This document shows positions 9,198 through 61,500 of a stretch of DNA of 64,000 nucleotides, in pieces. The notes beneath the pieces are model-generated. The model saw nothing but the letters and a program-made list of their open reading frames with translations, ran no database searches and had not been told where the DNA came from. This DNA comes from an uncultured Bacteroidia bacterium. Lineage in GTDB: Bacteria; Bacteroidota; Bacteroidia; Bacteroidales; UBA932. The first letter of the stretch is position 1. Each line of letters opens with the position of its first letter. The DNA lies in contig CACZDC010000003.1 of the NCBI GenBank assembly GCA_902779785.1, positions 19,674 to 83,673 of the forward strand, written 5' to 3'. Position numbers and translations under genes: made by a program.

Positions 9198-9198
9198 G

Positions 9199-10223: not shown

Positions 10224-10226
10224 CGC

Positions 10227-10988: not shown

Positions 10989-11007
10989 TATTGTCTTTTG
11001 TTTCTTT

Positions 11008-11067
11008 AAAAGTATCGTGCAAATATAGGAATCTTTCTTGGAAGTTTCCCAATATTTCGATACTTTT
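11008..11067. repeat. 10-bp perfect inverted repeat (AAAAGTATCG/CGATACTTTT) enclosing the divergent sdhC/pyrH promoters
   Basis: Arms at 11008-11017 and 11058-11067; -7 boxes TATATTTG (minus, 11020-11027) and TACTTTTG (plus, 11061-11068). Confidence 0.6.
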
Positions 11068-11089
11068 GTTATCGGAATAAAAGCAAGTT

Positions 11090-11794
11090 ATGTACAAGAG
11101 AGTTCTTCTGAAGCTCAGCGGTGAGTCCCTGGGCGGAAAGGCCGGGAAAGGCCTCGATACTGAAAGCCTGAGTGCTTATGCCAGGGAAATAGCCAAAGCG
11201 GTGAAAGCCGGACTCCAGATCGCCATCGTCAATGGCGGAGGCAATATCTTCCGCGGCCTGCAGGGGGCCGAAAAAGGCTTCGACCGCGTGGACGGGGACA
11301 AGATGGGTATGCTTGCGACCATAATCAATTCGCTGGCTCTCAGTATGTTCATCAAGCAGGAAGGAGTGGATGCCGTGGTCTTCACCTCTACTCCGACGGA
11401 GCCTTATGCCAAGTACTATATGAGGGACGATGCCGTCAAGGTACTAGAGCGCGGCGGAGTAGCCCTCATCGCCGGCGGCACGGGCAATCCCTTCTTCACG
11501 ACGGATTCCGGAGCGGCCCTGCGTGCCCTTGAAATCGGCGCCGACGCGCTCCTGAAGGGAACCCGCGTGGACGGAGTCTATACCGCGGACCCCGAGAAGG
11601 ACCCGTCTGCGGTCAAATATGACTCTCTCAGTTTCGAGGAGGCGATTTCTCGGAAGCTGAAGGTGATGGACCAGACAGCCTACGCCCTCTGTTCCGAGGG
11701 CAAAATGCCTATCATCGTCTTCGATATGAACTGCGAAGGCAATCTTACAAAGCTTCTTGAAGGAGAAAAGATCGGCACGCTGGTCCATCCGTAG
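11090..11794 (+). CDS. pyrH: UMP kinase
   Basis: RVLLKLSGE, GGGNIFRG, D.MGMLATIIN, GTGNPFFTTDS, VMDQTA. Confidence 0.97.
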   Translation: MYKRVLLKLSGESLGGKAGKGLDTESLSAYAREIAKAVKAGLQIAIVNGGGNIFRGLQGAEKGFDRVDGDKMGMLATIINSLALSMFIKQEGVDAVVFTSTPTEPYAKYYMRDDAVKVLERGGVALIAGGTGNPFFTTDSGAALRALEIGADALLKGTRVDGVYTADPEKDPSAVKYDSLSFEEAISRKLKVMDQTAYALCSEGKMPIIVFDMNCEGNLTKLLEGEKIGTLVHP

Positions 11795-11802
11795 GAATTT
11801 CG

Positions 11803-11810
11803 TATCTTTG
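11803..11810 (+). promoter_or_regulatory. -7 box (TATCTTTG) for recJ
   Basis: Perfect consensus 8 nt upstream of ATG 11819. Confidence 0.6.
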
Positions 11811-11818
11811 CAGGAACT

Positions 11819-13555
11819 ATGGGCATAGAAGAAAGACAATGGAACCTTATCCAGGCCGCCGACGAAGCGACCGTGAACCGGCTTTCCGTAGAGCTCGGCG
11901 TGGACAGGGTGCTTGCCCAGCTTCTTGTCCAGAGGGGAGTCGCTACCTTCGAGGATGCCCGCAGTTTCTTCCGTCCCAGCCTTGACAAGCTTCACGATCC
12001 TTTCCTGATGAAGGATATGGACAAGGCTGTCGTAAGGATCCACGAGGCCCTCGAAAGGGGAGAGAAAATCCTTGTCTACGGGGACTATGACGTGGACGGG
12101 ACTACGGCTGTAGCAGAGGTCGTAATCTTCCTGAAACGCTTCTCCCAGAAGGTTTCATATTATATCCCCGACCGTTATGACGAAGGCTACGGCCTGTCCT
12201 ACAAGGCCCTCGACTGGGCATCGGACAATCAATTCAACCTTGTCATAACCCTGGACTGCGGCATCAAGGCCACGGACAAGGTCGAGTATGCCAGGGCCAA
12301 AGGGATAGACGTAATCATCTGTGACCACCATCTCCCTGAAGATGAACTACCCAAGGCTGTGGCTGTCCTTGACCCGAAGCGGACTGACTGCCATTATCCT
12401 TTCGACGACCTCTGCGGCTGCGGCGTCGGTTTCAAGCTTCTCCAGGGCTATGCACAGAAATACGGGATAGATTTTTCCGTCCTTGAGCCGCTTCTCGACC
12501 TCCAGGTGGTGAGCATAGCCTCAGACCTGGTGTCTATGACCGGGGAAAACCGTATCCTGGCCTATTATGGGCTGAAAAGGCTGAATGAGGATCCCCGGAA
12601 GGGCCTGGTCGCTATGATGGGGCTCGCAAAGCTGGATCCGGGCCACGTTACAATCGACGACATCGTCTTCAAGATAGGGCCGCGCATCAACGCTGCCGGC
12701 CGTATGGAGTCCGGAAAGCTGGCCGTGGACCTTCTGACCGCAATGGACGAGCGCACGGCAAAACTCATCGCCGAAAAGATCAACGACAACAACAACGAGC
12801 GCAAGTCCATCGACCGTGAGATTACCCAGGAGGCCCTTTCTATGGTCCAGGAAGGCCGTGCCCTTGAGACGGAGAACGTGACCATAGTCTATAATCCCAC
12901 CTGGAACAAGGGGGTGGTCGGAATCGTCGCCTCGCGCCTCGTAGAGGCCTTCTACAAGCCTACGGTGGTGCTTACCAAGTCCAACGGGATGGTGACGGGT
13001 TCCGCCCGCAGCGTCCAGGGCTTCGACCTGTACGCCTCCATCGAGAGTTGCGCCGACTTGCTGGAAAACTTCGGCGGACACGTCTACGCCGCCGGCCTTA
13101 CGATGAAGGAAGAGCATCTGGAGGAGTTCTGCCGGAGGATGAACAGCTTTGTCTCGGACACCATAACAAGCGAGGAACTTACTCCCGTCGTGGATATCGA
13201 CGCCCGTCTGGACTTCTCACAGATAACGCCCAAGTTCCTCAGGATACTGAAACAGTTCCAGCCTTTCGGCCCCGGCAACTCCAATCCGGTCTTCCTTACC
13301 GACGATGTCTATGACGCCGGCAACGGACGCCGCGTCGGAGCAGGCGGAGTGCATCTGAAACTGGACCTTATCCAGGAATCCCAGCCCTACCGGCAGATCG
13401 GCGCCATCGGCTTCAATATGGCCCAGTACTATGATTTCATAAAGGAGGGCAATCCCATCGACGTCTGCTATTCCATCGTGGAGAATTTCTACCGTGGCTC
13501 ATCCACCGTCCAACTCCGCCTGAAGGATATCCGCGAGAGGGAGGAGTTTATCTAA
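11819..13555 (+). CDS. recJ: Single-stranded-DNA exonuclease RecJ
   Basis: GDYDVDG, DCG, DHH, PRINAAGR, GSARS, FGGH motifs. Confidence 0.96.
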   Translation: MGIEERQWNLIQAADEATVNRLSVELGVDRVLAQLLVQRGVATFEDARSFFRPSLDKLHDPFLMKDMDKAVVRIHEALERGEKILVYGDYDVDGTTAVAEVVIFLKRFSQKVSYYIPDRYDEGYGLSYKALDWASDNQFNLVITLDCGIKATDKVEYARAKGIDVIICDHHLPEDELPKAVAVLDPKRTDCHYPFDDLCGCGVGFKLLQGYAQKYGIDFSVLEPLLDLQVVSIASDLVSMTGENRILAYYGLKRLNEDPRKGLVAMMGLAKLDPGHVTIDDIVFKIGPRINAAGRMESGKLAVDLLTAMDERTAKLIAEKINDNNNERKSIDREITQEALSMVQEGRALETENVTIVYNPTWNKGVVGIVASRLVEAFYKPTVVLTKSNGMVTGSARSVQGFDLYASIESCADLLENFGGHVYAAGLTMKEEHLEEFCRRMNSFVSDTITSEELTPVVDIDARLDFSQITPKFLRILKQFQPFGPGNSNPVFLTDDVYDAGNGRRVGAGGVHLKLDLIQESQPYRQIGAIGFNMAQYYDFIKEGNPIDVCYSIVENFYRGSSTVQLRLKDIREREEFI

Positions 13556-46761: not shown

Positions 46762-47772
46762 TTATTTGAAAAGAACCTTGCAGACGGAAAGGTTATAGGT
46801 CTCATCCAGAGCCGCTTTCCCCTGGAAGAAAAGATAGATCTGCCCGTCATCATCCCGGAAAACCCCGGGGTGGCCACTCTCGGCCGCATTCCAAGAGCCC
46901 TCAGACCCGGAAGTAAAGCAAAGCCCGTCCGGGGGGATGCGGGTGAATTGCCTTCCGTCGCGGGAAACGGCAAGACCAATCTGCTGGTGTTCGTGGTTAT
47001 AGGCCCCGGCATAAAACATATACCATATTCCCTTATGCTCCACGACGGTCGGCGCTTCTACACAACTCATCTCCCAGGGATATTCCGGCTTCAGAAGCGG
47101 TCCGTCGACAGAGACTAGTTTCCATTTGTCGGGGCCATAATCGCTGCCGTAAGGAGCCTCTGCCATTCCCATTATCTGGTAGGTGGCGCTTGTATCCCTG
47201 GTCGCGAAAAGGAGGATGAGTTTGTCACCAAGAGGATAGACCTCCGCGTCTATAGAACGCTTGATCGACCAGTTGGTATCCGGAATAAAAACCGGCCTGT
47301 CACAGGTATTGACAAAGATGATTCCATCCTTGCTTACGGCGTGCCAGATATTGCTCATACCTTCGGTTCCTTCCCAGCCCATCTGGTAGAAAAGATGTAT
47401 TTCCCCGTCAAGGACTTTCACGCACGGAGCCACGGCGCCGAGGACCTTGTTACCCTGGGTATCCTTGAGGTCAAGGTCGCACAGTCGCGTCCAGTTCACA
47501 AGGTCGGTGCTGCGGGCAACCCCCGTATGCCAGCCGGAAAGGATAGGCGGAGTCTTGCCAGGATTAATGTCGGGGACGAAAGCCGACACCGAATAATACA
47601 TCAGGTACTCGTTGCCGAGCCGAATGACGGTAGGGTCTTTGGCGAACGGGACGGGAGAGCGTGACGTGTCCCCGTACTGCATCGGGAGTGGTTCCAGGAC
47701 CACACGCATAGGCTTATGGGCACAGGCGACAAGGCAAATCGCCGCCGTCAGGGAAAGAAAGATTTTATTCAT
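46762..47772 (-). CDS. GH43-like five-bladed beta-propeller glycosidase (lipoprotein)
   Basis: LVAC lipobox; AKDPTV (base), IDAEV (modulator), VEAPTV (acid), WYMFYAG..N, SGHPGVF. Confidence 0.75.
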   Translation of the reverse strand: MNKIFLSLTAAICLVACAHKPMRVVLEPLPMQYGDTSRSPVPFAKDPTVIRLGNEYLMYYSVSAFVPDINPGKTPPILSGWHTGVARSTDLVNWTRLCDLDLKDTQGNKVLGAVAPCVKVLDGEIHLFYQMGWEGTEGMSNIWHAVSKDGIIFVNTCDRPVFIPDTNWSIKRSIDAEVYPLGDKLILLFATRDTSATYQIMGMAEAPYGSDYGPDKWKLVSVDGPLLKPEYPWEMSCVEAPTVVEHKGIWYMFYAGAYNHEHQQIGLAVSRDGRQFTRIPPDGLCFTSGSEGSWNAAESGHPGVFRDDDGQIYLFFQGKAALDETYNLSVCKVLFK

Positions 47773-50700
47773 AACAGTGATTCCATATATTCTGAAGGCG
47801 TCTTGCCATACTGTTCACGGAAGCATTTGGCAAAGTACGAAAGATTGGTGAAGCCTACGGCATAGCCGATTTCTGAAACACTGTTGCCGGAAGATTCTCT
47901 CATCATCGCCTCCGCCACAGCAAGCCTCTTGTTTCGGACATAATTATTCGGGGAGGTCCCAAGCAGCCGCCTTACCTTTCGCACCAGCGTTGCCTGGCTT
48001 ACGGCCAGATGGTCCGCAAGGAACTCGTTGGACACATCTTCGTCAGAGAGATGATCCATAATCAGTTTGTCCAGGCGAAGCAGGAATTCCTCCTCACGCC
48101 TCGGGAGTCCGAACACGGCGATATCCTGGCTGATCATACCCCTGCTCAGCGTCCGCTTCATCAGTCCCCGGCGGCTCAGGATATTGTGGATGCTGGCCTG
48201 CAGGTACTCCATATCGAAGGGCTTTTCGATAAACAGGTCCGCGCCGAGACGCATAGCTTCCACTTTGGACTGCGTTGATGTCCTGGCGGAAACGACTATG
48301 ATGGGGATATGGGAAATCTCGATATCCTCCCGTATTTCGCGACAAAGGTCAAGTCCGCTTTTCCCGGGCATCGAGATATCCGTCAGGACCAGTTCCACCG
48401 GCTGCTCCTTCACAATGGACAGAGCCGACTCGACGGTATTGGCAGTCAGGACGGAATATCGCTCTTCCAGGGCGTGGGCAAGGTAGTCCGTCAGTTCGCG
48501 GTTGTCCTCCACGAGCAGCAGCGAAGGGCGCCAACCGGACGCCACATCGGCATCCTCCGCCTCTTCGGCGGGCAAGGCACCGAACTCGTCTTCGGAACGC
48601 GGAAGCGTCAGGACAAAGCAGGTCTCGCCCGGGACATCAGAGAGAGTAAGATTGCCACCGTGCATCTGGGCGAGCATCCTCGCGAGTGAAAGACCGATTC
48701 CGACCCCCTCGGAAATCTCACCGGACTCCCGGTGATACTGTGTGAAGGGGCGGAAAATAGCCTCACGGTAGGCATCTGGAATCTCGGGGCCATCATTGGA
48801 GAACGCGACGTAAATGTTCTCATCGTCCCGTTTCACATCGATTGTAATGCGGCTTTCTGCGTACTTCAGGGCATTGATGAGGATATTGTTCAGGATTTTG
48901 TCCAGGGCGGCAACGTCGGCGCTTACCCCGGCCGTAAAGGCTGGAGGGTCCATCGTAATGCTGATATTTCGTTCGGCGGCTGTATCGGCAAAGCTGAAAA
49001 CGAGCATCTTCAGTTTATCCACCAGATCTACCTCCACCGGATGCAACTCATAGCCCTTACGCTCGATTCTCACAAAATCCAGCAATTCATTGACCAGCGA
49101 GGTCAGATAGTCTGCACTGCGTTGCATCACCGACAAATCGTGTTCCGAGGCCGCATCGTGCCCACTCCGCGCCTTCAACTGCGAGAGCGGCGTCTGAATC
49201 AAAGTCAGCGGCGTCTTGATTTCGTGGATGACGTGCGAGAAGAAATCAAGTTTCTGCCGGAACATTTCTTCTTCCTTGGCTTTCCGGAAACGATCTTCTT
49301 CCTCCCGCTGCCTGCGCCGGATCAGCCAGAGAGAAAAAGCAAGGATGGCGGCAAGCCCCAGCAGGGAGAACAGCACTATGAGGAAGACACCGGCGATGGA
49401 GCCCCAGAAAGGGGGCTTTACCACAATCTCCAGCGCCTCTTGCTTTTCTACCCACTCTCCGCCCACCTCGGCCGTGCGGAGCCGCAGGCGATAGTTTCCC
49501 GGGCGAAGATTGAACCAGGTCATCCGCTTTCCTGCCGACACGTCCTGCCAGCCTTTGTCGTGGCGCTCGAGCAGGCACTGCAGACGCTCGGTGGCCGGGA
49601 AAGAATTGCCCAGCACGGCAAACTCGAAACTGAGAGTATTCTGATCGGCCTTCAGCACCTGTTTCTCAGAGGAGTTGAATTGTGGAACATCTTGGTCGCC
49701 GATCTGGAATTTCGTAATTACGGCCACGGGGAGAATGCCACGATTGATGACAGGGGCCGGACGGAAACGGATAAAGCCGTTGTCCGAGCCGAATAACATT
49801 TCTCCGTTTTCCAGTCTTAGGGACGAATTGGTAAACTTGCGCTCCAGCAGGCCGTCCAGTTCCGTATAAAAGCCCACCTCACCCGTTTCCGGCACATATC
49901 TTACCAGGCCGGAATCCGATGACAGGTACAGGTCCCCGCTTCCAGACTCTACAGCTCGGAAAAACACATTGGTGGGAAGAATAGCGAGATTGTTCCGGCA
50001 AATGCGGACAAAGCGGTTCGAACTCCGGTCCAAGCGGTAGAAGCCCGACGAAAAACCGACGGCCCAGACATTGCCTGAAGCATCTACATACATAGAACAG
50101 ACCTTGTCGGAAACAAGTCCGCCATCGTCAGCTACGCAGTAATGGCCGACCATCTCCCGCTCCGCCGGATCCCAGTGGAATACCCCGTCGTCAAAGGTCG
50201 ACAGCCAGAGCCGCCCGTCCTTGTCCTCGACAATGGAGGTAATGAAGTAGCCATAGAACTCATCCAGCGATTCAAAGCGGTCGGCTTCCGCGTTATAGCG
50301 GAATACCCCGCGCGTAGTGGAGGCGTAGAGGTCATCCTCGCCCGCCCGGGCCACGACATAGACCTTCGCGTCGTCCACCCCTTTGTTGCGGAGATTCCCG
50401 TAGAAGCGCAGGGATTTCCTGGCCACGTCATAGCGGTACAACCCATCCTGGGAGCCGAACCACAGCGATCCGTCCAGATAGCAGGGAGAACAGAGCGCGG
50501 TGTGCAGGCCAGTATTCACAGCAGTAAGCGCGTTGGCGGAAAGGGAGTAATAGAACAGCCCGTTATTCTCCGTAGTCACCCATACCTTGTCCTGTCCATC
50601 CGAAGCGAACCCGCTGACAATCGCCCCTCTCAGAGCCTTGTCATAAACTTTCACAAAGCGGCGCTGGTCCAGGCCGGAATAATGCACGCCTCCATCTTTT

Positions 50701-51671
50701 GTCCCCACCCAGAGGCCACCGCTGCGGTCCACACAAACGGCGCGGACCTGGTCGTCCGAGAGGGAAAACGGATCTTCCTCATTCATCTGGTAAACGGATG
50801 ATTCTCCGGAGATCAAGTCATAGGACCATACCCCTCGCGAAGTGGAGAGCCAGAAACGATGCCCGCCTTCCAGAAACACGTGATTGAGCGCAACCCCCTT
50901 GGGCAGCGGAAACAGACTCCGTACTGTCCGCGCCGACGGGCAGACCTCGGAAATGCCGTGCAAGGTACTTACGGCATAAAAACGGGTAGAATCGCCGCAG
51001 GCATAGAAAAGGCCCTCCACATCATCGCCCGCAAACCAAGAGGGACTGGCCTCCAGTTCTATGGCATGGCGGTTGGAAAAGGCTGCATCTGCGTGATAAA
51101 GGTTGCGGCGATATTTGGAAAGCCAGTAGCCGCCATCCCGGTCGCGAAGCAGCTTCCGGAAGGAGCAGGCCGCTTCCTTGCCGGCTCCTCGCAGATAATT
51201 GACCAGCGTTTTCTTTTGCTGATCGTAAATAAAGCAGCCGTCGAAGCCGGACAGGATATAGACAAGCCCGTCATCGTCGCAAGAAATGAATGTGACCTTA
51301 CCCGTTATACGCGTACCGTTGTCCGCCAGCAACTTCAGTGGCTCGAAGCGGTCCTCGTCACGAAGATAACAGGTGACCCCGGCATCGGTCCCTATCCACA
51401 GGTTTCCGTCACGGTCTTCTGCAATCTGGTGGATAAAGTCGGAAGCAAGACCGAGATCCTCACGGTACCATACCCGGAAACGCGTTCCATCATAGCGGTT
51501 CAAGCCCTTGAATGTACCGATCCATACAAAACCCTGGGAATCCTGGAAAATTTCATTGATTCCGTCATAAGAAATGTCGCTGTTACCTGTATGAAAACGA
51601 ATGAACTCCCTGCCGGCCAGGCTTGAGGGGCACAGCAGCAAGAGGAAAACGAGGATACGATATACTTTCAT
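47769..51671 (-). CDS. Hybrid two-component system (beta-propeller sensor-YYY-TM-HisKA-HATPase-REC-AraC)
   Basis: QDSQGFVWIGT..GLNRYDG repeats, HEIKTPLT H-box, G.GIGLSLAR, VEDN..., DISMPG, terminal IGY.VGF...SYF.KCF HTH. Confidence 0.95.
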   Translation of the reverse strand: MKVYRILVFLLLLCPSSLAGREFIRFHTGNSDISYDGINEIFQDSQGFVWIGTFKGLNRYDGTRFRVWYREDLGLASDFIHQIAEDRDGNLWIGTDAGVTCYLRDEDRFEPLKLLADNGTRITGKVTFISCDDDGLVYILSGFDGCFIYDQQKKTLVNYLRGAGKEAACSFRKLLRDRDGGYWLSKYRRNLYHADAAFSNRHAIELEASPSWFAGDDVEGLFYACGDSTRFYAVSTLHGISEVCPSARTVRSLFPLPKGVALNHVFLEGGHRFWLSTSRGVWSYDLISGESSVYQMNEEDPFSLSDDQVRAVCVDRSGGLWVGTKDGGVHYSGLDQRRFVKVYDKALRGAIVSGFASDGQDKVWVTTENNGLFYYSLSANALTAVNTGLHTALCSPCYLDGSLWFGSQDGLYRYDVARKSLRFYGNLRNKGVDDAKVYVVARAGEDDLYASTTRGVFRYNAEADRFESLDEFYGYFITSIVEDKDGRLWLSTFDDGVFHWDPAEREMVGHYCVADDGGLVSDKVCSMYVDASGNVWAVGFSSGFYRLDRSSNRFVRICRNNLAILPTNVFFRAVESGSGDLYLSSDSGLVRYVPETGEVGFYTELDGLLERKFTNSSLRLENGEMLFGSDNGFIRFRPAPVINRGILPVAVITKFQIGDQDVPQFNSSEKQVLKADQNTLSFEFAVLGNSFPATERLQCLLERHDKGWQDVSAGKRMTWFNLRPGNYRLRLRTAEVGGEWVEKQEALEIVVKPPFWGSIAGVFLIVLFSLLGLAAILAFSLWLIRRRQREEEDRFRKAKEEEMFRQKLDFFSHVIHEIKTPLTLIQTPLSQLKARSGHDAASEHDLSVMQRSADYLTSLVNELLDFVRIERKGYELHPVEVDLVDKLKMLVFSFADTAAERNISITMDPPAFTAGVSADVAALDKILNNILINALKYAESRITIDVKRDDENIYVAFSNDGPEIPDAYREAIFRPFTQYHRESGEISEGVGIGLSLARMLAQMHGGNLTLSDVPGETCFVLTLPRSEDEFGALPAEEAEDADVASGWRPSLLLVEDNRELTDYLAHALEERYSVLTANTVESALSIVKEQPVELVLTDISMPGKSGLDLCREIREDIEISHIPIIVVSARTSTQSKVEAMRLGADLFIEKPFDMEYLQASIHNILSRRGLMKRTLSRGMISQDIAVFGLPRREEEFLLRLDKLIMDHLSDEDVSNEFLADHLAVSQATLVRKVRRLLGTSPNNYVRNKRLAVAEAMMRESSGNSVSEIGYAVGFTNLSYFAKCFREQYGKTPSEYMESLL

Positions 51672-51680
51672 TGTTTATGC

Positions 51681-53708
51681 TTATCTGATAACGACTGCGC
51701 CATCTGGAGGCACCGTAACCGTTCCACGCTTCGGCGCGCCTTTCGGAAGCCGGACTTTATGCGCCTTCGCTTCTGTATTTACGAGGATGAAGGCGGGCTT
51801 CCCGTCCCTGTCCTTCCATTCTGCCCCCAGTACGGCGGTATCCTCCCAGAACCTCACGAAATCTCTTTTCGGATTCGCTCCGAGGGGCGTAAATTCGCGT
51901 ACGAATTCCCCGCCAAGAACGATGTCGTGTATCGTAGAACGGAAATCCATAAGCTTTCTCAGATAGGCAGCTTCCGCCGCGAATTTCGGGTCCGTGATGA
52001 TGAAAGCCCTAACCCAGCCGGGCTGGGCGCCGTAAAGCAAGGCCTTGGCAAAGGCATAGCGGTAGGTGCTGGGGACACCGACTTCCAACACCTCGGGAAG
52101 AGCGGTGAAGGCGCTGGTAATGATGCGGTCTGAATAAACCATAGGAAAAACCGGAACAATCTTCAATGGGCCAAGATGGTCGTTGTTCAGGCTGTTCACC
52201 ATCAGCATCATATCAAAGAGGTCGCTGTAACACTCTCCGTTTTCCTCCGTCGTCAAGATTCCGCCGGGGCGCAGATGCTCCCTGCGGATATCTCTAAGAA
52301 TGCGTTGGTAACCCTCCAGCCAGAAACTGCCTCCTCCGCGGGGGTGACCGTGGGACGGATTCCAGCAGGGTACCGGAACCGTACATCCCACCTGGTCGAT
52401 ATACACGCCGTCCACCCCGTATTCTGTCTGAATGCTCTCCACCAAGGAGCAGAGTTTGTCGTGCCACGTCTTCGTATAAGGGCAAGTGACGGAATTGACG
52501 ACACAAGAAGTACGGTAAATCTCCGTATAAAGGGTGCCGTCCATTTTTCGTGCGGATGCATCCGCACCGCCATCCCTGGCATAACTTTCCGAATGCGGAT
52601 CCCAGAGACGGCCGTTTATGTAGGGAGTAACGTGGACGCCCTTTCTATGAATCTGGGCGATCCGTTCTGCAAAACCAGGCCGTGCCGGAAGATATTCCGG
52701 ATAGTGGGTATCATATTCAATCTGGTGCCACCAGTACCAGTGGGCGCTCAGGTGCTCCCCCAGCAGGTCTGCCGCTTTGTCCAGGGCGTCAAACTCGTCT
52801 TCCACAGTTTTCAGACGCACCCAGCCCTCGGTCTGCAGCAACCAGGGAGACAGGGTGGAAAGACGGTTTTTGATTTTGCGTTCTTCTCCTCCCCAGGGAA
52901 GGGTATAAGAATATGGCTTGTACCAATGAGTGACTGCGTGTTCCCAGCCCGCACGGTCAAACCCTAGATTTATGGCAAAAGGAAGGGTAAACTTTCCTTC
53001 CGAGGTCCAGGCCTCGCTGGCGGGGACATCCAGAGAAAGGTGCATATCCACGTTGCCGTCCACCCCATAAACCTTCCGGCTGCCAGAGGAGTCCTCGGTC
53101 CCGAAGAACAGAGCCCCGTCCGCATTGTGGACCATCACAAACTGCATTGAGCTGGTGGGATAGACGGCTTTGTGTCCTGCGGCAGAGAGGGGTGCTTCCA
53201 AACCCCAGCCTTCAGGGATGATCACCTTGGCATTCTCCGGGTGGCAGAGCGTCAGTTCCGGATATTTTACATTCGTCACTATCCAGCCATCTGGAAGCTC
53301 CGTCTCCAAATTGAAATACAGTCGGTCACCGTCGTCCGGGAGACTCACGACGGCACGAAGAGGATAATTTCCCCGGGAATAGTCCAGACGGAGAAACCAG
53401 GTAAAACAATAGCGTTGTACGCCATTTTCGTATGTTTTTACGGCACCTTGGTACCGTGCCACCTTGGGACGGTAGACCGGAGTCTCCCCCATAGGCCCCA
53501 AAAGGGTGAGATCCCAGAAGGCGAAGGAGCCGCTGCCCGCCACCTTATGGCCGTCCATAACAATCTCTTCTATCGTAAACGTATCGCCGCTGTTGAAAAC
53601 TGCACGTATTTTACCGTTGTCAAGGATGCATTTCTCCTGAGCAAGAGCATTGTGCGGACACAGCATTAGAAAAGCTGCCGCTAAAATCAATAAAAGTATT
53701 CGTTTCAT
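51681..53708 (-). CDS. Exported DUF6259-like protein, putative TIM-barrel glycoside hydrolase
   Basis: Signal peptide ALA-Q; HWYWWHQIEYD..YPEYLP, PYINGRLWD, DGVYIDQ, TTEENGE. Confidence 0.6.
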   Translation of the reverse strand: MKRILLLILAAAFLMLCPHNALAQEKCILDNGKIRAVFNSGDTFTIEEIVMDGHKVAGSGSFAFWDLTLLGPMGETPVYRPKVARYQGAVKTYENGVQRYCFTWFLRLDYSRGNYPLRAVVSLPDDGDRLYFNLETELPDGWIVTNVKYPELTLCHPENAKVIIPEGWGLEAPLSAAGHKAVYPTSSMQFVMVHNADGALFFGTEDSSGSRKVYGVDGNVDMHLSLDVPASEAWTSEGKFTLPFAINLGFDRAGWEHAVTHWYKPYSYTLPWGGEERKIKNRLSTLSPWLLQTEGWVRLKTVEDEFDALDKAADLLGEHLSAHWYWWHQIEYDTHYPEYLPARPGFAERIAQIHRKGVHVTPYINGRLWDPHSESYARDGGADASARKMDGTLYTEIYRTSCVVNSVTCPYTKTWHDKLCSLVESIQTEYGVDGVYIDQVGCTVPVPCWNPSHGHPRGGGSFWLEGYQRILRDIRREHLRPGGILTTEENGECYSDLFDMMLMVNSLNNDHLGPLKIVPVFPMVYSDRIITSAFTALPEVLEVGVPSTYRYAFAKALLYGAQPGWVRAFIITDPKFAAEAAYLRKLMDFRSTIHDIVLGGEFVREFTPLGANPKRDFVRFWEDTAVLGAEWKDRDGKPAFILVNTEAKAHKVRLPKGAPKRGTVTVPPDGAVVIR

Positions 53709-55621
53709 AGCGTTCTGAGCCACACGCTCATCTGGGTGATTCCCTCCTGGGCGTGACGGAAATAAGGAATAAACATAAGGTGGCGGTCCGTGTCCATCAA
53801 GCTGACGGAAGCGGGATCTTGATTCTGTTCTTCAAAATGATCCTCCGGGGATATTGTACAGGTACGGATATCCTTTTCGTTTTCCGGAAGGACGGCGCAA
53901 TAGACGATGGGGCCGCGCTCTACCACAATACGTCCCTTGACCGCTTCTACCCTGTCGTCGGCCTTCACGAAACGCAGCGGCATTTCAAAGCGGACATCCA
54001 CCACGTCTCCGTCTTTCCACTTCCGGTCAAGGACAGCATAACCTTTTTCCGTTGCATAGTTGACCACTTCTCCGTTTACAAAGATGACCGGCAGGGAAGG
54101 CTCTGCGTCCAGGTATGTGTATAAGGTACCGGGAACGGGATGGCCCTGGGCCCAGCCGGGAATACGGATGCGCAGAGCCGTGGCTTTGAGCGGAGCCTTC
54201 TCAAGCGTCAGCCGGACGTCACCGTCGTAAGGATAGACTGTTTCGCAGCGCAATTCCACCGGCTCACCCGCCGCGGTTTCAAAGGCGCTTTGCCCCGATG
54301 TAAACAAATTGACATAAAGGCTGTTATTCCCCAGGGCATAGACATAGCCCGGCAGGGAAAGAAAAATCCGAGCCAGATTGGTAGGACAGCAGCAAGTTTC
54401 GAACCACGGGAGGCGATGGCTTCTCCGAAGGCGGGACTTCGGCCTGATCTTCGCCCATTCCTTTTCCCAATCGAAGGTATAAGGACTGCACTGCAGGACA
54501 TTGGCATAAAAGAATTTCATTCCGTCGTCAGAAATGCCGTGCAGTACATTGTTATAGAGCGTTCGCTCGAAAATGTCGAAGTAACGGCTCTCGCCCGTAA
54601 GGCAGAACAGCCGGTAGTTCCACATACAACTGCCCACCCCGGCGCAGGTCTCGCAATGTGTTTCCTCATCAGGCAGAAAATACGCTTCGCCGAAGCGTTC
54701 CTTCTCCCGGTAACTTCCCAGACCGCCAGTAAGATACATCTTCCGACCCGTCACATCATTCCAAAGGGAATCGGTGGCTGTGCGGTAGGCCTTATCGCCG
54801 CAAAGGACAGCGTTGTCTACAATCGCCATAAAGCGATAAACGCCGCGGACGGCGTGACCGAGAGCTTCGTACTGCTGAGCCACAGGCTTGGGGTCATCCC
54901 CGCAATAGCCCCGGCATTCCAACAGGAAATGCGAAAGATCGAGATAGCGCCTGTCGCCAGTAGCCCGGTATAATTTCACCAGGGCCAGTTCAATTTCCTC
55001 GTGGCCGGAGGCGATCTTTCGCCCCGGAATCAAGAAGGTATTGTAGATAAGATCCGCGTTGCGTTTGGCGATATCCAGGAAAGCGGTTTTTCCAGTGGCG
55101 TAATAGTGTGCCACTGCCGCCTCGTACATATGCCCGACATTGTAAAGCTCGTGGCTGGTGGCAATATCGTTCCAGCGCTCCTGCCCCGCCTTGGGATCCA
55201 CGTCCAGGCCGCCCGAAGTACGGATGGTATAAAGATACCCGTCCGGTTCCTGCGCTGCGCCCACCAGGGCGATTAGGCTGTCCATATACTGATCGAGCGC
55301 CGCATCATAGCGGGTAGAAAGACTGTATGATGCCGCCTCCATCACCTTGAACACATCGGAATCGTCATAGCGGAGTCCGGTAAACTTCGTAGTATCAAGG
55401 CCTGCGGCACGCGCAAAATTGGCGATGCGCCCGGTTTCCTCGCATTTGCGAAAGGCGAAAGGAATAGTGTTTTCCCGCACAACACGCTCCCTTTCAGCGA
55501 ACAGACCGTCCGTAAAACGAACGTGAGAGAGCGAAACACCCTGGATAGGATAGTCCTGCGACTGTTTTTGGGAGCACGAGGCCAGAATGGCTACAAGGGC
55601 AAAAAGAACTGTCTTTTTCAT
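53705..55621 (-). CDS. GH127 family glycoside hydrolase (beta-L-arabinofuranosidase-like), lipoprotein
   Basis: LASC lipobox; DSDVFK.MEA, HELYN.GH, SGHEEIELALVKLYR, GHAVR, ETCA, CCPTN, RIPGW, RGPIVYC. Confidence 0.88.
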   Translation of the reverse strand: MKKTVLFALVAILASCSQKQSQDYPIQGVSLSHVRFTDGLFAERERVVRENTIPFAFRKCEETGRIANFARAAGLDTTKFTGLRYDDSDVFKVMEAASYSLSTRYDAALDQYMDSLIALVGAAQEPDGYLYTIRTSGGLDVDPKAGQERWNDIATSHELYNVGHMYEAAVAHYYATGKTAFLDIAKRNADLIYNTFLIPGRKIASGHEEIELALVKLYRATGDRRYLDLSHFLLECRGYCGDDPKPVAQQYEALGHAVRGVYRFMAIVDNAVLCGDKAYRTATDSLWNDVTGRKMYLTGGLGSYREKERFGEAYFLPDEETHCETCAGVGSCMWNYRLFCLTGESRYFDIFERTLYNNVLHGISDDGMKFFYANVLQCSPYTFDWEKEWAKIRPKSRLRRSHRLPWFETCCCPTNLARIFLSLPGYVYALGNNSLYVNLFTSGQSAFETAAGEPVELRCETVYPYDGDVRLTLEKAPLKATALRIRIPGWAQGHPVPGTLYTYLDAEPSLPVIFVNGEVVNYATEKGYAVLDRKWKDGDVVDVRFEMPLRFVKADDRVEAVKGRIVVERGPIVYCAVLPENEKDIRTCTISPEDHFEEQNQDPASVSLMDTDRHLMFIPYFRHAQEGITQMSVWLRTL

Positions 55622-55622
55622 A

Positions 55623-57608
55623 TTATAATCTAGGCCAAATGGTTTCCCAAATCAGATCCATAAAGTTCCGCTTACCCTTGTTAAGCTGGGCGGTCACCGC
55701 GATGACGGCATTCTTCTCCGGGATTACGATACCAAACTGTCCGAAAGCGCCGTCCAGCCTGAACGCATTGTGGGTGCACACCCACATCTGGTATCCATAA
55801 CCCGCATTCCAGTCATTCCGTGGGCCGTCGGACTGGTAAATCTGCGGTGAACTCATCGCCTCCACCCATTCCGGCCGGAGCAATTGCCGACCGTCCCATT
55901 TCCCTTTGTTCAATAAAAACTGGGCGGTCTTGGCAAGGGTTTCCGTTGTGGTATAAAGTCCCCAGCCCCCTGCGGTAACGCCGTCGGCACTCTCCTCCCA
56001 TTCCCAGTTGCAGATGCCCAGCGGACGGAACAGGCGGATGTTCAAATACTCGGAAAGTTTCATTCCTGTACAGCGCTGGACGATTTCAGACAAGAGATAG
56101 GTATTCATCGAATTGTAATGATAGCGGGCCCCTGGTTCAAAAGCCATCGGGACTGCAAGAACTTCCCTGGCGGGATGCTGCCATTCCAGCGACCGGACCT
56201 TATTGATTCCGTCTGTCCCAAGTCCGGACGACATCGTCAGAAGATCCCGAATGCACAATTTTTCCAGCCACTCTCCGCGCTCGGAAGGGAGCTCGTCGTC
56301 GTGAAAGAAAGAGATTACCTTGTCATCAATTCCAAATAGAGACTCCTGTACCGCAAAGCCCACAGCAATGGCGGTAAAAGTCTTGGAAGCAGACCACATT
56401 ACGTGCCTCTCATCGGGTCTGTGCCCCGTATCATACTTTTCGTAAATCTTCTTTCCGTCCTTCAGAATCATCATAGAATGGATTTCATCCGTTCCAGCGA
56501 ACATCGTCACTGCCCTCCAGACGGAATCAGCAGCCTCATCGATGCAACCAAAGTCATCGGCAGACTCAAGATGGATGTCCGGGCTGTCCGGCCGGCGGGA
56601 GATAACTTCCCGGCAGGGCGAAACGCTGACCACCTGGAAATCCCTGTCCAATACGAATACCTGATAACGCTGTCCTCCGTCACTGACCCGAAGCACGATA
56701 TGCCCCACGCCTGCCACGGCTGACTTCCAAAGCGCGCTCCCGCTGCCTTTTTTACCACTGTCCGTCGTCACATAAAGCTTGTGAGCGCAGGGGAGCTGTG
56801 GATCGGCGATACGCCGGAGCGTCAGTGGGCAAGGCTGTTTATGGTCGAAGCCGGCGACGAGCATCACTTCCGGGCGCATCTTCCACAGAAAATCGGAAGT
56901 GGTCGCGTCCGGGACACCGTGATGGTTCAGTTTCATCGCGGTAACCGGGCCGACGAGCTCAGCCACCTGGCTTTCGAAACTCCGGTATTCCACCTTATCG
57001 TTGGCTTTGATTTCCGGAGAAACTGCTTTCCCGTCCTTGAATTGCTTCACATAGAAGTTGCTTCCGGAAATATCCCCGCCCGTATAATAGGAGAAGGGGC
57101 CATAGCGCAGCAGGATGGCGCAGCTGAGCATATTCTCGTCAAAGTTTTCGGGGTCCTCTGGAGACAAGGGGCGGCAAAGGGTTCCGTTTTCCGTAGCTAT
57201 CCATCCATTCCCGGCAATATTGAAGATGTCAAATTCCGACACTGTAGCGTGAAGTGGAATGAACTGATTATGACTGCCCGGAGTAAAACTGTTCCTGTCT
57301 ATTTTCCGGCCAATCTCGAAATTCGCCTCAACCGCAGTGGCGCCACCGGTATGGTCCTTATGGAAATGGGTCAGAAAGAAATAATCCAGCCCGTCAGGCC
57401 TGGGGGAAAAGTGGCGTATGTATCGGGAGACGACTTCGGCCTTGGGATCCCCGGCATCGATAAGCATAGTCGTGCCGTCGGGCATCACTACAAAGGTATT
57501 CTCCCCGTAGTCCGAGGCAATCATATGGATATCCAGCGTCCCCTCCTTCCAGAAGGGAAAGACTGACAATGCGGCCGCAAGAAGGCCGGATACAAGAAAA
57601 TGGATCAT
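55623..57608 (-). CDS. Fusion of an MBL-fold (ComEC/Pce-like) hydrolase and a beta-lactamase-fold serine hydrolase
   Basis: N-half: MLIDAG, THFHKDH, GGD, NHHG. C-half: WSASKT (SxxK), LLTMSSG, PGARYHYN, YGYQMW, DGAFGQ. Confidence 0.82.
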   Translation of the reverse strand: MIHFLVSGLLAAALSVFPFWKEGTLDIHMIASDYGENTFVVMPDGTTMLIDAGDPKAEVVSRYIRHFSPRPDGLDYFFLTHFHKDHTGGATAVEANFEIGRKIDRNSFTPGSHNQFIPLHATVSEFDIFNIAGNGWIATENGTLCRPLSPEDPENFDENMLSCAILLRYGPFSYYTGGDISGSNFYVKQFKDGKAVSPEIKANDKVEYRSFESQVAELVGPVTAMKLNHHGVPDATTSDFLWKMRPEVMLVAGFDHKQPCPLTLRRIADPQLPCAHKLYVTTDSGKKGSGSALWKSAVAGVGHIVLRVSDGGQRYQVFVLDRDFQVVSVSPCREVISRRPDSPDIHLESADDFGCIDEAADSVWRAVTMFAGTDEIHSMMILKDGKKIYEKYDTGHRPDERHVMWSASKTFTAIAVGFAVQESLFGIDDKVISFFHDDELPSERGEWLEKLCIRDLLTMSSGLGTDGINKVRSLEWQHPAREVLAVPMAFEPGARYHYNSMNTYLLSEIVQRCTGMKLSEYLNIRLFRPLGICNWEWEESADGVTAGGWGLYTTTETLAKTAQFLLNKGKWDGRQLLRPEWVEAMSSPQIYQSDGPRNDWNAGYGYQMWVCTHNAFRLDGAFGQFGIVIPEKNAVIAVTAQLNKGKRNFMDLIWETIWPRL

Positions 57609-57615
57609 CGTCAAA

Positions 57616-58563
57616 TTAGAAGTTACGTTCTTTCAGGCAGGCTTCCAACTGTTCCTTGCTCATAGGAAGTTTTCCCTTATAATTGCGAACCCACTTCACG
57701 AAGCGCTTGTTCATCTCATCACTCCAGGCACTGTCAATTTCTCCCGCCGTATAGACGTGAGTCTTAATCATCTCCTCTCCGAATTCGTCAGTGAGTTTGG
57801 TAAATTCCGAGGTCAGGACAATATGCTCCAACAGGTGAGGCGGGATGAAGAGGACGGCCCCAGGCTTGGCCAGGACGGCGTCGCCGGGCAGTACGGTAGC
57901 GTGTCCGATGCGGATGGGCACATTATAATTGGTCAGGATAGTCTGACGCATATAGGACGGATCATAGTTCTTCATCCATATATTCAGACCGGGGATGCGG
58001 CGAAGGCGCTCAATATCCCGGATATTGCCGTAGGTAATCAGGCCGTTTCCGGTTTTTTCGAACACCCCGCTGCCCAGATTCGAGCCCACAGCCGTGCCCA
58101 GGAACTCCTTGTTATAGGTATCGGCCACATACACGTCACCCTTGACCAGAGAATTGATGACCCAGGATACCGTGCGCTTCTGCTGCCACATCCTGCCTTC
58201 CTTCTTGCCCTGTTCGATGATTTCGTCTTCCAGGTCAGGACGCAGCGGCATAAACTGGGCCGTAACGGCACGTCCCACCATTACGGCGTCCTCGGTGTCG
58301 TGCAGCAACATCCAGTCACCCTCATATTGATTCTGGTAGCCAAGTTTCATCAACTCCGCCCAACACTCTTCAATGGTCACGTGCTTGAGTCTCTCCAGAA
58401 GATCGTCCGGGACTTTCGGACGTCCGTCAGGGAAACGTTCCCCTGTCCACTTAGCCGTCAGGGCCTTGATGTATTCCGGAGAACCTGCAATAGACTGGGC
58501 AAGCGCCCGGCCGGGCAGCAGCGCAAATGCGGCTGCGCACACAATCGTTACAATCCTTTTCAT
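57616..58563 (-). CDS. RraA / HMG-aldolase-like protein with a signal peptide
   Basis: GRAVTAQF.P, GDVYVAD, GSNLG, GNIRD, IG.ATVLPGD.V, FIP; N-terminus MKRIVTIVCAAAFALLPGRALA-Q. Confidence 0.78.
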   Translation of the reverse strand: MKRIVTIVCAAAFALLPGRALAQSIAGSPEYIKALTAKWTGERFPDGRPKVPDDLLERLKHVTIEECWAELMKLGYQNQYEGDWMLLHDTEDAVMVGRAVTAQFMPLRPDLEDEIIEQGKKEGRMWQQKRTVSWVINSLVKGDVYVADTYNKEFLGTAVGSNLGSGVFEKTGNGLITYGNIRDIERLRRIPGLNIWMKNYDPSYMRQTILTNYNVPIRIGHATVLPGDAVLAKPGAVLFIPPHLLEHIVLTSEFTKLTDEFGEEMIKTHVYTAGEIDSAWSDEMNKRFVKWVRNYKGKLPMSKEQLEACLKERNF

Positions 58564-61500
58564 ATGTTTTTCCATACAATTTCCATCGTCGTTTTTCCGA
58601 TTTTCACCGCCTGGCGGGCGGGAGAATTTTCCAGCACTTTAACTTCGGCGGCCTTGTCATATAGCAGGGCGAAAGCGCAGGAGGCGTTTTTAGGACTGCG
58701 TCCGTGATCTACATACAGATCCATCAACTCCCCTTCCCCTTCGCTGAAGGCCGTTCCCTTAAACGGGAAATATTTTACGCGTTCCGCATCGGCCCTGTAG
58801 CGCTGGTCCACGCAGGTTACAACCTGCACGTCCCTCTCGCAACAGATTCCCGCCGTCAGGCAGACGACACCTCCGCCGAAAAAGAACCAGGCCTTGCGCG
58901 CACACAGTCCATCCCGCTGATACAGCATACCGATGGCCATATCGTTGCCATACATCCGGCAGAGCGGGTGCGGAGCATCGTTATATACAGGGTTTTCGTT
59001 GTCCTCGCAAGGCGGAGTCGCACTTACCGGGCCTCCGTCATCCCAGGAGGTAACACCGGGGATATGCTTCCAATTCCACAGTGAAGCGATATTCTCGTAT
59101 TCATCCCCGCGAGATCGGGTAAGCAGGCAGCCGTCGGCGGAAAAATAGCCCTGCGCGTTCTCTCCGTTCGTACACTCATAGCCCTTGACAAAACGGGACT
59201 GCATCCGCAGGGACGCATACCAGCCATCCCCTCGGTAAACGGCAAAATCGGAACAGGGATAGTAAATCCCCCCACTCCGCTGGGGAATCTCCACGCCAAG
59301 CCGCTCCGCAGCCTGAAGGGCACAAATCGCCTTACCGCGCTGGGCATTGACAAACAGCTGCCGTCCGCAGGCGTTCATATCAAAGAAACCCTGATAAACC
59401 ATCTGTCCCAGGCCTTTGGAGACATAATCTTTCAAAAATAACTTCTGTCTGTCGGAGAAAGCCAGGGGCGTATCTTCCAGGACAGAGGCCCACCAGGAAA
59501 GGGAAACAGCATAAGACAGACCGTAGTTGCCGAACTGCAACTGGCGCCCGTGCTGTTGGAAGGACCAGTCCGTCCTCACTCCGGCACCCGGCGCTCCAAA
59601 GCTGGCTTCACCCACAAGGACTGCCTGCGCTTCACGGACGGACACATCATCCCCGCCAAGCAAGCCGCGCATCAGGACAATCCCGGCAAGCCACACACGG
59701 TTCTGTCCGCTGCGGCCGATTTTGGCCGCGGACAGCACTTTCAGGCAAGCCTCCAGTTCATCGTCGGTGAATTCCTCTTTCAGCAGAAGGAAAGCCGGCG
59801 CCAGCAGGCGCGGGCAACCTATCTCATTGTGCCACCAGTTGGGACAGACGGGCGTATTCCCGCACCAGAAACGAAGGGCTTGCAAGGCCGCATCACGGGC
59901 AGCGGCATCTCCGGTCCGGCGGTAACGGATGGCTAGCCGCTGCAGGCGGAAACAATGGATGGCAGGGGCCCATACGCCCCGGGAATCGTCCCGGTAATCG
60001 ATATCGGTAAAACTGCCGTCTTCCTTCTGGAGGGAAAGGAGCTTCGCAGCCTCGGCATCCTCCAACGGGACTTGCAGGAAGAGTTCCCGCATATCACAAC
60101 TGTTCTCGAGGCCCTCTTTGGAGATGAGCGCATACTCCGCCGCCTTCCCGGGGTCGGTCTCTACGGCGAGAGTCGCTGCATTGATGGCGGCAATGATCCG
60201 GCTCGCCAGAGGAGACCCCCTGAACTTTCGATCTTCCAATTGACATTCATAGAGCGAGAGCGGATTCCGGAAGGACGTTTTCGTCAGGCGGGGCCACCAG
60301 TCAAAACGTGTCGCAGCTTCCGCATCCGGCAGGCTGATGTGTCCGCTGCCGCCCTGGCCATAATCCACATAGGGGTACCACTTCGCGTCCGGACGACGGG
60401 CGTAACCCAGCGACTGATAATAATCCTCCACTGGTTTGCCATAGAAATCTCTGTTCAGACGCTTCTGAACACGGGTGCCGCCCAAGAGGCCAATGCAATA
60501 ATTGCGTCCTGATGGATGGGGGCTGGAGAAAGTGAGACCGGGGGTATTTTCCGCCGCCCAGGGGCTTTCACATTCGACATTGCCCTCCGTCTCCACATTC
60601 CAGAAAATGGTATTGGCTCCGGTCCATCCGTGACCGGTGCCTGCGTTTCCGTGGTCCGTCACGCGGAAGCCCGCGGAATTGTAACAACAGTCGAAAAGTG
60701 TCCCGGTACTCCAGCGCTGGTGCGGACCGGCACCGGTACGCATATTTGGCCCCTGGCACTGGGTATAGACATTCGGCCCTCCCGCCTTGGTATTGGTTCC
60801 GAAACCGATGGCCGACTTTTCACAATAGCATTTTTTTATCAGACAGAGTTCCGCCCCTTCCAGGGCAAAACCATAACGCCGGGCCATCGTGGGCAGGGAA
60901 ACGGGATTGACAAAAGAGCAATCTTCCACGGTGACGCAGCGGGTTCCGGAGGAAAGCATAGTCGCAGCAAAGCCGAAGTGCGTCACGGTGACTTCCCTGG
61001 CAAAACAATCTTCACAGGCAAGGAAATACATTCCATACCAGGCATGTTCCTCGTCGATTTCCACCCCATCCTCGTTCCTGACCGAAGGGTCATAGTCAGA
61101 ATCCAGAGTGAGCTTTTCTATCCCGCAGCCGCGTACACGCGTGAGCCTGTACTTGCAGATATTACCTCCGCCGTAGTTTTTATCCAGGGACTGCACCAGC
61201 GGGGCGTCAAAATAGAGCCGATTCCCGCGGATATCGGTCACGCGGCGCGACCAGCGCATCATCATATTCCCGTCGCTCCATTGCCTGACAGGACCCTTTT
61301 CCCTGCCGTTGGAGGCAATCCTGTCCATTCCCACGTCGGAAAGCCAGGCCGCATTGTGCGGACGCTCAACCATCACTTCGTCTCCAATGGAAAAGATACC
61401 GGAATCTTCCACCTCTACCCAAAACCGGCCCACCGGGCAATAGTCCTCCGCCACGGCAACCTTTTCCTTGATGGACGGTGAAGAAGCATGGGGAGAAAGG

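Follow-up and report, generated by a model that had tools for sequence, protein, structure and literature searches.

A gene in the 64,000-nucleotide stretch of contig CACZDC010000003.1 analyzed here (the window), from an uncultured Bacteroidia bacterium of the rumen (order Bacteroidales), joins two hydrolases end to end: a metallo-β-lactamase (MBL) fold module of the ComEC/Pce type and a serine hydrolase module of the PF00144 family. As read from the sequence, its product is an exported protein in which two hydrolytic centers are intact and conserved. The pairing of an MBL module with PF00144 is rare and confined to one small clade of herbivore-gut Bacteroidales. The fusion is a novel pairing of two much-reused modules from known superfamilies, and not a novel kind of system.

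A word-indexed search of 5.8 billion proteins, with clusters formed at 90% identity, yielded 10 other full-length clusters (P0002–P0011), which are 53–96% identical to the window protein, 661–741 residues long and cover 98–100% of the query. All align with it end to end, with the linker between the modules at the same place and no breaks. These homologs come from GenBank metagenome-assembled genomes (MAGs; L001–L003, from goat rumen, cattle rumen and horse faeces), from Logan contigs of four different runs and from one JGI metagenome. An assembly artefact is thus very unlikely, since the same fusion is present in independent assemblies. In a maximum-likelihood tree of 63 C-terminal domains, the 11 fused ones form a single clade with a support of 100/100, from which it follows that the fusion arose once. 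Their sister in this tree is a stand-alone lipoprotein of 348 residues, encoded in L004.

Both halves of the protein are kept by selection, as shown by the low ratio of nonsynonymous to synonymous substitutions (dN/dS) in each. Codon comparison of the window with L001 and L002 gave a dN/dS of 0.10–0.11 for the MBL half and 0.08–0.10 for the serine hydrolase half, with 0.20–0.35 for the linker.

Among 379 hits to the MBL module, PF00144 was found as a partner only in the 10 clusters of this clade, and in a library clustered at 50% identity, P0010 alone stands for the clade among the best 150 hits to the module. The full fusion is absent from all 24 sampled genomes of the same genus, and the gene is therefore accessory rather than core. 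The preliminary description knew of no characterized fusion of an MBL with a serine hydrolase, and literature searches found neither such an MBL–PF00144 fusion nor a role in polysaccharide utilization loci (PULs) for either clade.

The two hydrolase modules

The open reading frame listing places the gene in a minus-strand frame at 55623..57614, with 663 residues counted from a TTG codon. Residue numbers here follow this count (P0001 numbering) and are lowered by 2 if counted from the ATG. Because close homologs begin with MIHF or MVHF in the alignment of the full-length clusters, the ATG at 57608 is the likely start, in agreement with the 661-residue protein first described. The frame contains no stop codon or frameshift, and the view that it encodes one polypeptide with one N-terminal signal stands, the same being true of the 10 further clusters. 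Stand-alone homologs of the MBL half carry signal peptidase I or lipoprotein signals at the position equivalent to this signal. Pfam recognizes Lactamase_B at residues 38–101 (27.4 bits against a cut-off of 22.7) and Beta-lactamase PF00144 at residues 380–647 (131 bits against a cut-off of 27, E = 6e-38). The linker between them was originally put at about 56560–56610, and this location was borne out, as it coincides both with the end of the stand-alone MBL homologs and with the start of the mature L004 serine hydrolase. It is about 12–17 residues long and has a predicted local distance difference test (pLDDT) score below 50 at residues 341–345 in AlphaFold2 (AF2) modeling.

Table 1. Coordinates of the fusion gene, its modules and motifs, and its neighbors in the window
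Feature	Position	Strand	Remarks
Fusion gene	55623..57608	(-)	661 codons + TAA; alternative TTG start at 57614
N-terminal hydrophobic signal MIHFLVSGLLAAALSVFPF	57552..57608	(-)	Sole export signal of the fusion protein
ComEC/Pce-type MBL module	56610..57566	(-)	Residues ~17–335; collinear with whole stand-alone exported proteins of ~400 residues
H83-F-H85-K-D87-H88	57351..57368	(-)	Metal-binding HxHxDH motif; 29/29 family members (alignment A3)
G-G-D181 (residues 179–181)	57072..57080	(-)	Candidate bridging Asp, ComEC D700 equivalent; invariant in the 29
H231-H232 (NHHG)	56919..56924	(-)	MBL motif 5, ComEC H725 equivalent; invariant in the 29
Inter-domain linker	56559..56609	(-)	Residues ~336–352; variable, low model confidence
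PF00144 (class-C-like / family-VIII-like) serine hydrolase module	55626..56558	(-)	Pfam 131 bits; NF045925 248 bits
S408-A-S-K411	56382..56393	(-)	SxxK nucleophile Ser and general-base Lys; conserved in 63/63
Y500-N-S (residues 500–502)	56109..56117	(-)	Second motif; Tyr in 62/63, remaining row gapped
D621-G622-A623	55746..55754	(-)	Replaces K-T-G / H-x-G box; D in 62/63, G in 63/63
RraA-like exported protein	57616..58575	(-)	Pfam; upstream putative operon partner
β-helix + PL8 lyase, 1163 residues	58560..62051	(-)	Pfam Lyase_8_N, Lyase_8; upstream putative operon partner
GH127-like glycosidase	53705..55621	(-)	Downstream putative operon partner
Hybrid two-component sensor (HTCS)	47769–51671	(-)	Between DUF6259 and GH43-like genes, inside packed enzyme cluster

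By its motif, its Pfam score and its fold, the N-terminal half belongs to the metallo-β-lactamase fold superfamily (PF00753). Besides the metal-binding residues in Table 1, D53, D106-R107, E160-N161, H305 and R309 are invariant across the family. A PDB search with a 29-member profile matched Pce/CbpE (1wra, E = 7e-10) and the ComEC structures 9ic4 (1e-6) and 30bt (2e-6). The AF2 model made from the 29-member alignment has a pLDDT of 91.9 and a predicted template-modeling score (pTM) of 0.90. When it was compared with the PDB by Foldseek, the best match was the ComEC BLACT domain (9ic4, E = 4e-11), followed by Pce (2bib/1wra, 1e-10 to 7e-9) and then, in order, UlaG, RNase J, PNGM-1 and the phosphodiesterase tw9814; nearly all matches at E ≤ 0.001 are MBL-fold proteins. 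The profile and fold searches thus agree with the initial assignment of this half to a ComEC/phosphorylcholine-esterase type. Of these relatives, ComEC, Pce, RNase J and tw9814 are cleavers of phosphate esters.

The metal-binding and catalytic residues of ComEC are H598-x-D600-x-D602-H603, D700 and H725; its β-lactamase-like domain is a DNase, and Pce has been named as its closest structural relative (PMC12455585). The window protein is neither of the two. TIGR00361, the ComEC/Rec2 model, scores 26.9 bits against a cut-off of 190, matches only over model positions 426–585 (residues 12–183 of the fusion protein), and there is no membrane domain. Identity to Pce/CbpE is about 14%, and Pfam found no choline-binding repeats.

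The stand-alone family of the MBL module is large, with 478 representatives at E ≤ 1e-10 in the 50%-identity library, and the window MBL is the shortest of its family. An insertion of about 45–80 residues between VDR and F-x-GS is present in P0005–P0011 and in 18 of 18 aligned stand-alone relatives and absent from the window protein; this deletion is shared only with P0002–P0004, the closest fusion clusters. The loop after HxHxDH is likewise missing in the window and in P0002–P0004 (window 57000–57330, residues ~95–205), and a clade-specific insertion of about 25 residues follows GGD in all members of the fusion clade. The closest stand-alone MBL (P0122, 46% identical; L085 8768–11182) lies directly after a gene of CobW/COG0523, a family of metallochaperone GTPases; this adjacency would suggest zinc as the metal of the enzyme.

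The C-terminal half belongs to the PF00144 serine hydrolases by its SxxK motif, its second-motif tyrosine and its Pfam score. Its SxxK motif had been called intact and is so, being conserved, like Y500, throughout the aligned sequences (Table 1). The second motif had been described as of the Y-x-N type; the tyrosine is present, but the letters read Y-N-S, which is not strictly Y-x-N and aligns with Y-S-N of Lsa45. The third box matches neither K-T-G nor H-x-G and is instead a conserved, clade-specific R-x-D621-G-A-x-G-Q.

The term “class-C-like” applies to the half as a PF00144 module, but its closest relatives are a clade of acyl-ester enzymes resembling BAS-suc, the 3-succinylated cholic acid synthase of Bacteroides uniformis, and not AmpC. 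The BAS-suc model NF045925 is the best named model for this domain (E = 1e-73, positions 54–329 of 498). The protein is not BAS-suc itself, as the score of 248 bits is far below the equivalog cut-off of 800 and coverage is partial; since only model positions 54–329 of 498 are covered, the C-terminal domain of about 170 residues in BAS-suc is missing from the fusion. The closest solved structures by sequence are Lsa45 (8dc1, E = 1e-27) and PIB-1 (8rlj, E = 5e-21). Because the only characterized close relative makes an O-acyl ester, esterase or acyl transfer activity is the most economical guess for this half. It is possibly an amidase or a peptidase.

Origin of the fusion and reuse of its modules

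Stand-alone homologs of the N-terminal half are 30–46% identical to it, about 380–460 residues long and have their own signal peptide or lipobox. They align from a conserved LPxWxEG, right after the signal, exactly to the start of the linker. At the other side of the junction, the mature N-terminus of the L004 lipoprotein (…DSHLPAAADFGAYDEEFDKVF) aligns with the linker and first helix of the fusion (…DSPDIHLESADDFGCIDEAADSVW). From these alignments, it follows that the fusion consists of a whole exported MBL protein and a mature exported serine hydrolase. In the event envisaged, a stand-alone binuclear metallo-hydrolase of the ComEC/Pce type would have been joined, once and end to end, with a mature lipoprotein serine hydrolase (PF00144, BAS-suc-like clade), which would have lost its own signal peptide on joining. 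A candidate for the state before fusion, with a stand-alone MBL adjoining a stand-alone serine hydrolase, was found in none of 70 loci that carry one module alone. In the combined alignment of N-only and C-only homologs (A2), MAFFT pulled the tails of the N-only sequences into the C-domain; this alignment was used only for the C-domain column counts and as the source of sequences for the tree, and not for folding.

A comparison between near-identical strains touches on the later history of the junction. Between window 55626–57608 and L084 9222–11204, synonymous divergence is 0.22 in the MBL half and 0.015 in the serine hydrolase half. This mosaic may reflect recent recombination with a breakpoint close to the linker.

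Bacteroidota commonly build enzymes by joining accessory hydrolase modules, and both modules of the fusion are found in other arrangements. In other Bacteroidales, the serine hydrolase module is fused to the YdjC/ChbG deacetylase (PF04794, many clusters), ThuA, GH26, S9 and carboxylesterase domains, and CBM9, while a stand-alone form of about 517 residues has an extra C-terminal domain. The MBL module mostly stands alone. Its partners elsewhere include AXE1/CE7, Abhydrolase_7/CE15-like and other α/β hydrolases, GDPD (P0213), nucleoside hydrolase, GH51-like, DUF4861 with GH88, carbohydrate-binding modules with a type IX secretion tail, and Mfa-like domains. The pairing is therefore less unusual than it may seem at first sight: PF00144 is a partner only in this clade, but each module makes many other fusions.

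Several of these arrangements are worth describing. In P0296 (1031 residues, from a Logan contig), the MBL module is combined with DUF4861 and with GH88, an unsaturated glucuronyl hydrolase whose substrates are the products of lyases; this is a further tie of the MBL family to the lyase-based breakdown of uronic-acid glycans. Domains similar to inosine-uridine nucleoside hydrolases are repeatedly fused to or adjoin the MBL module (P0132, P0339, P0340; L086 6477–8965), one such cluster having 329 member sequences, an indication that some of the MBL family act on ribosyl or nucleotide-like substrates. Three Tidjanibacter MAGs (L008, L009, L012, at about 8850–12045) carry three tandem paralogous serine hydrolase modules in three different reading frames (8853–9857, 10001–10948 and 10984–12045). 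In congeners without the MBL fusion (G003:C10, G003:C1 and G024:C16), the serine hydrolase module is C-terminal in frames of 641, 1050 and 1294 residues, and it has thus been recruited into other large architectures within the same genus.

Gene neighborhood

The fusion gene lies in a row of genes that are all on the minus strand and separated by tiny gaps: an M20 amidohydrolase, the β-helix plus PL8 lyase, the exported RraA-like protein, the fusion, GH127, DUF6259, the HTCS and a GH43-like gene. The TAA of the RraA-like gene ends 7 nt before the ATG of the fusion, and the ATG of GH127 follows 1 nt after its TAA. The set is predicted from this arrangement to be an operon governed by the HTCS. 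The order PL8, RraA, fusion, GH127 is kept in L001, L002 and L084. The beta-helix half of the PL8 protein and the other unannotated neighbors gave only a sub-threshold, pectate-lyase-like match with Pfam (E = 0.36).

The RraA/HMG-aldolase family is known as a cytosolic one, and an exported member is unusual. The RraA-like neighbor has an N-terminal export signal and is syntenic, with 94% identity, in L001 and L002.

Similar company is kept in more distant members of the clade. In L081, where the fusion is 63% identical to that of the window, a PL8 lyase of 564 residues, 67% identical to the PL8 half of the window lyase, overlaps the start of the fusion, and a heparinase-II/III-like gene (1283 residues) and a BD-FAE esterase are nearby. 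In L082 (fusion 64% identical), PL8 and then Hepar_II_III_C precede the fusion, with a gap of 2 nt. A Hepar_II_III_C-like gene also comes after the stand-alone sister in L004. Altogether, PL8 and/or heparinase-II/III-like lyases are found beside the fusion in three of four subclades, and the glycan context that was suggested from the window alone is supported by this repeated adjacency.

The stand-alone MBLs offer further observations. In L055 (1179–3802) and L056 (285–2926), a stand-alone MBL that is 35% identical to the window module is directly followed by a homolog of residues 4–540 of the window lyase, its unclassified β-helix half, which is a second, independent link between the MBL family and the β-helix family. 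In L057/58/60, a stand-alone MBL is part of a classical PUL with the order GH3, SusC, SusD, MBL and SusE-like. No neighbor is conserved across the stand-alone MBL loci beyond closely related genomes.

Function, alternatives and related systems

The reading that we favor, with about an even chance of being correct, is that the fusion is a bifunctional exported enzyme that strips phosphodiester and acyl decorations from an acidic glycan. It is based on the PL8 and heparinase-II/III-like lyases that adjoin the fusion in three of the four subclades. The MBL module would work in the periplasm or at the cell surface, where two metal ions held by H83, H85, D87, H88, D181 and H231/H232 would activate a water molecule for the cleavage of a substituent, either of the phosphodiester type or another anionic ester. 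In the serine module, S408 would be the nucleophile and K411 and Y500 the bases, and O-acyl, possibly N-acyl, groups would be removed through an acyl-enzyme. Between them, the two activities would give the neighboring lyases and glycosidases access to an acidic polysaccharide that contains uronic acids, or to its oligosaccharides, and tethering would keep both at work on one substrate molecule. The preliminary description had likewise proposed that two different substituents, a phospho-ester and an acyl or amide group, are removed; taken singly, the chemistries are more doubtful than the picture as a whole. The phosphodiesterase guess is made because the nearest structural relatives are mostly phosphoesterases and because of the GDPD and nucleoside hydrolase fusions, while the esterase guess derives from the BAS-suc relative and the many carbohydrate esterase partners.

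A number of points weigh against this reading. For all members of both the MBL subfamily and the serine hydrolase clade, a glycan function is inferred. MBL folds also include lactonases, thioesterases and sulfatases, and PF00144 proteins can be peptidases or amidases; since the two families span several activities, homology does not fix the two chemistries. The full-length AF2 model, made from an alignment of 11 sequences (A1), is poor (pLDDT 68, pTM 0.60), and its inter-domain geometry is unusable. There is no lyase near the fusion in the L080/L083 subclade, where the order is GH77, SpoU, fusion, cupin, GH3, CBM9 and LacI, nor in L003, where the fusion comes after an Rnf operon at the contig end; the lyase link is thus strong, but not universal. 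In the window, no SusC/SusD pair is adjacent to the operon.

One alternative, which we consider unlikely, is that the enzyme scavenges debris of bacterial envelopes. Its targets would be teichoic- or teichuronic-acid-like polymers or capsules of gut neighbors. Groups in phosphodiester linkage would be cut from these by the Pce-like module, D-alanyl or other acyl esters by the serine module, and the lyases would then attack the uronic-acid backbone; alternatively, the serine module would be a D-peptidase. This would fit with the closest solved relative that has a polymer substrate, the teichoic-acid phosphorylcholine esterase Pce, with the fusion of the MBL module to a GDPD glycerophosphodiesterase domain in P0213, with the D-aminopeptidases and D-peptidases among PF00144 relatives, and with the exported M20 amidohydrolase in the operon. 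The PF00144 protein FmtA, which removes D-alanyl esters from teichoic acid, likewise counts in its favor. However, a Pfam scan of the fusion protein found no choline-binding or other cell-wall-binding domain, and enzymes such as the GH127 and GH43-like partners more typically go with plant glycans that contain arabinose. The proposal is in effect a special case of the de-decorating enzyme with another source of substrate, and sequence alone cannot separate the two.

It would also be somewhat surprising if the two modules acted on unrelated substrates, for example if the MBL degraded nucleic acids or nucleotide phosphodiesters and the serine module served as a general esterase, so that the fusion merely gave co-export and equal dosage or was near-neutral. 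Both modules are promiscuous and have many unrelated fusion partners, the MBL module is fused to or adjoins nucleoside hydrolases (P0132, P0339/P0340, L086), the corresponding ComEC domain is a DNase, and in the 70 loci with one module alone, stand-alone copies of the two are not adjacent. Set against this, homologs as little as 53% identical still carry the fusion, its two sites are intact and its halves are equally constrained, and the repeated lyase neighborhood points to one shared pathway.

A dual β-lactamase that confers β-lactam resistance through a metallo and a serine mechanism is very improbable. The word “lactamase” is in both Pfam names, and PIB-1 (8rlj), a distant relative in the PDB, hydrolyzes carbapenems. 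However, the protein falls far below the NCBIfam cut-offs for the metallo-enzymes of subclasses B1, B2 and B3 (20.4 against 100 for bla_class_B_core, 14.4 against 200 for bla_subclass_B1, 15–16 against 400–640 for the B3 families), and AmpC is rejected by a score of 12.4 against 870 for the class C model blaYRC and by the motifs Y-N-S and D-G-A in place of Y-x-N and K-T-G. Moreover, the MBL half is closest to ComEC/Pce and not to the B1–B3 enzymes, and the gene is inside a glycan-degradation operon. The statement in the preliminary description that both “β-lactamase” folds are joined is thus right in that two such modules are present, but the names coincide and neither half resembles a real β-lactamase. 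Despite these names, the protein has no bearing on antibiotic resistance.

Finally, that two adjacent genes were merged through sequencing or gene-calling error is scarcely conceivable: the window is from a draft assembly of 126 contigs and its nearest relatives are MAGs, but the same continuous frame recurs, at 53–96% identity, in at least 10 assemblies that were made independently in different studies and from different hosts. Unlike the stand-alone sister in L004, the second half lacks both a signal peptide and a start, and purifying selection acts over both halves, with constraint relaxed in the linker and yet no stop codon or frameshift there.

Beyond the single protein, the bifunctional reading leads to a wider and rather doubtful proposal, namely that the exported ComEC/Pce-like MBLs of about 400 residues could be unrecognized carbohydrate-active phosphodiesterases of Bacteroidota PULs, with the fusion as a two-headed de-decorating enzyme for PL8 and heparinase-like lyases. 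If true, this would be a new class of accessory enzymes for glycan breakdown in herbivore guts. As possible PUL phosphodiesterases for glycan decorations, this large MBL family is a more valuable lead than the fusion itself. The fusion provides a natural link of the Rosetta-stone type, by which both clades are tied to PL8 and heparinase-II/III-like lyases. If the bifunctional reading is right, two uncharacterized clades, the exported ComEC/Pce-like metallo-hydrolases and the BAS-suc-like serine hydrolases, would be marked as auxiliaries that remove decorations from acidic polysaccharides in the rumen and hindgut. The link would also help to annotate hundreds of gut Bacteroidota proteins now called “MBL fold metallo-hydrolase”, “ComEC family” or “serine hydrolase / CubicO peptidase”, and would guide the search for the substrate of the operon.

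Among known systems, Pce/CbpE of Streptococcus pneumoniae, the best PDB profile match and second-best Foldseek match of the MBL half, is comparable as an exported MBL-fold hydrolase of the ComEC/Pce branch that acts on a phosphodiester-linked decoration of a cell-surface glycopolymer, the same chemistry as is proposed for the MBL half. Unlike Pce, which has choline-binding repeats and no serine hydrolase, the window protein, with a template-modeling (TM) score of 0.5 to it at the low sequence identity given above, has a different C-terminal β-sheet extension and its own invariant D106-R107, E160-N161 and R309. The ComEC/Rec2 domain (9ic4, 30bt), the top Foldseek match with a TM score of 0.66 on the target, has the H-x-[HD]-x-D-H motif, bridging aspartate and late histidine ligands in common with the MBL half. 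ComEC, however, forms a DNA channel in the membrane and has OB and competence domains, whereas the window protein is soluble, exported and encoded in a glycan operon.

For the serine hydrolase half, BAS-suc is likewise a Bacteroidales PF00144 enzyme, one that makes or breaks an O-acyl ester and not a β-lactam, but without an MBL domain. Lsa45 of Leptospira and PIB-1 of Pseudomonas aeruginosa share the SxxK/Tyr arrangement, with about 25–35% identity over the aligned region. They are single-domain proteins with unrelated biological roles, adhesin/esterase-like in the former and a metal-dependent carbapenemase in the latter. A parallel in design is to be found in the multi-catalytic modular enzymes of Bacteroidota PULs, including the other fusions of both modules, which follow the same logic as the fusion described here. 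It differs from them in the MBL–PF00144 pairing, which occurs in this one clade only.

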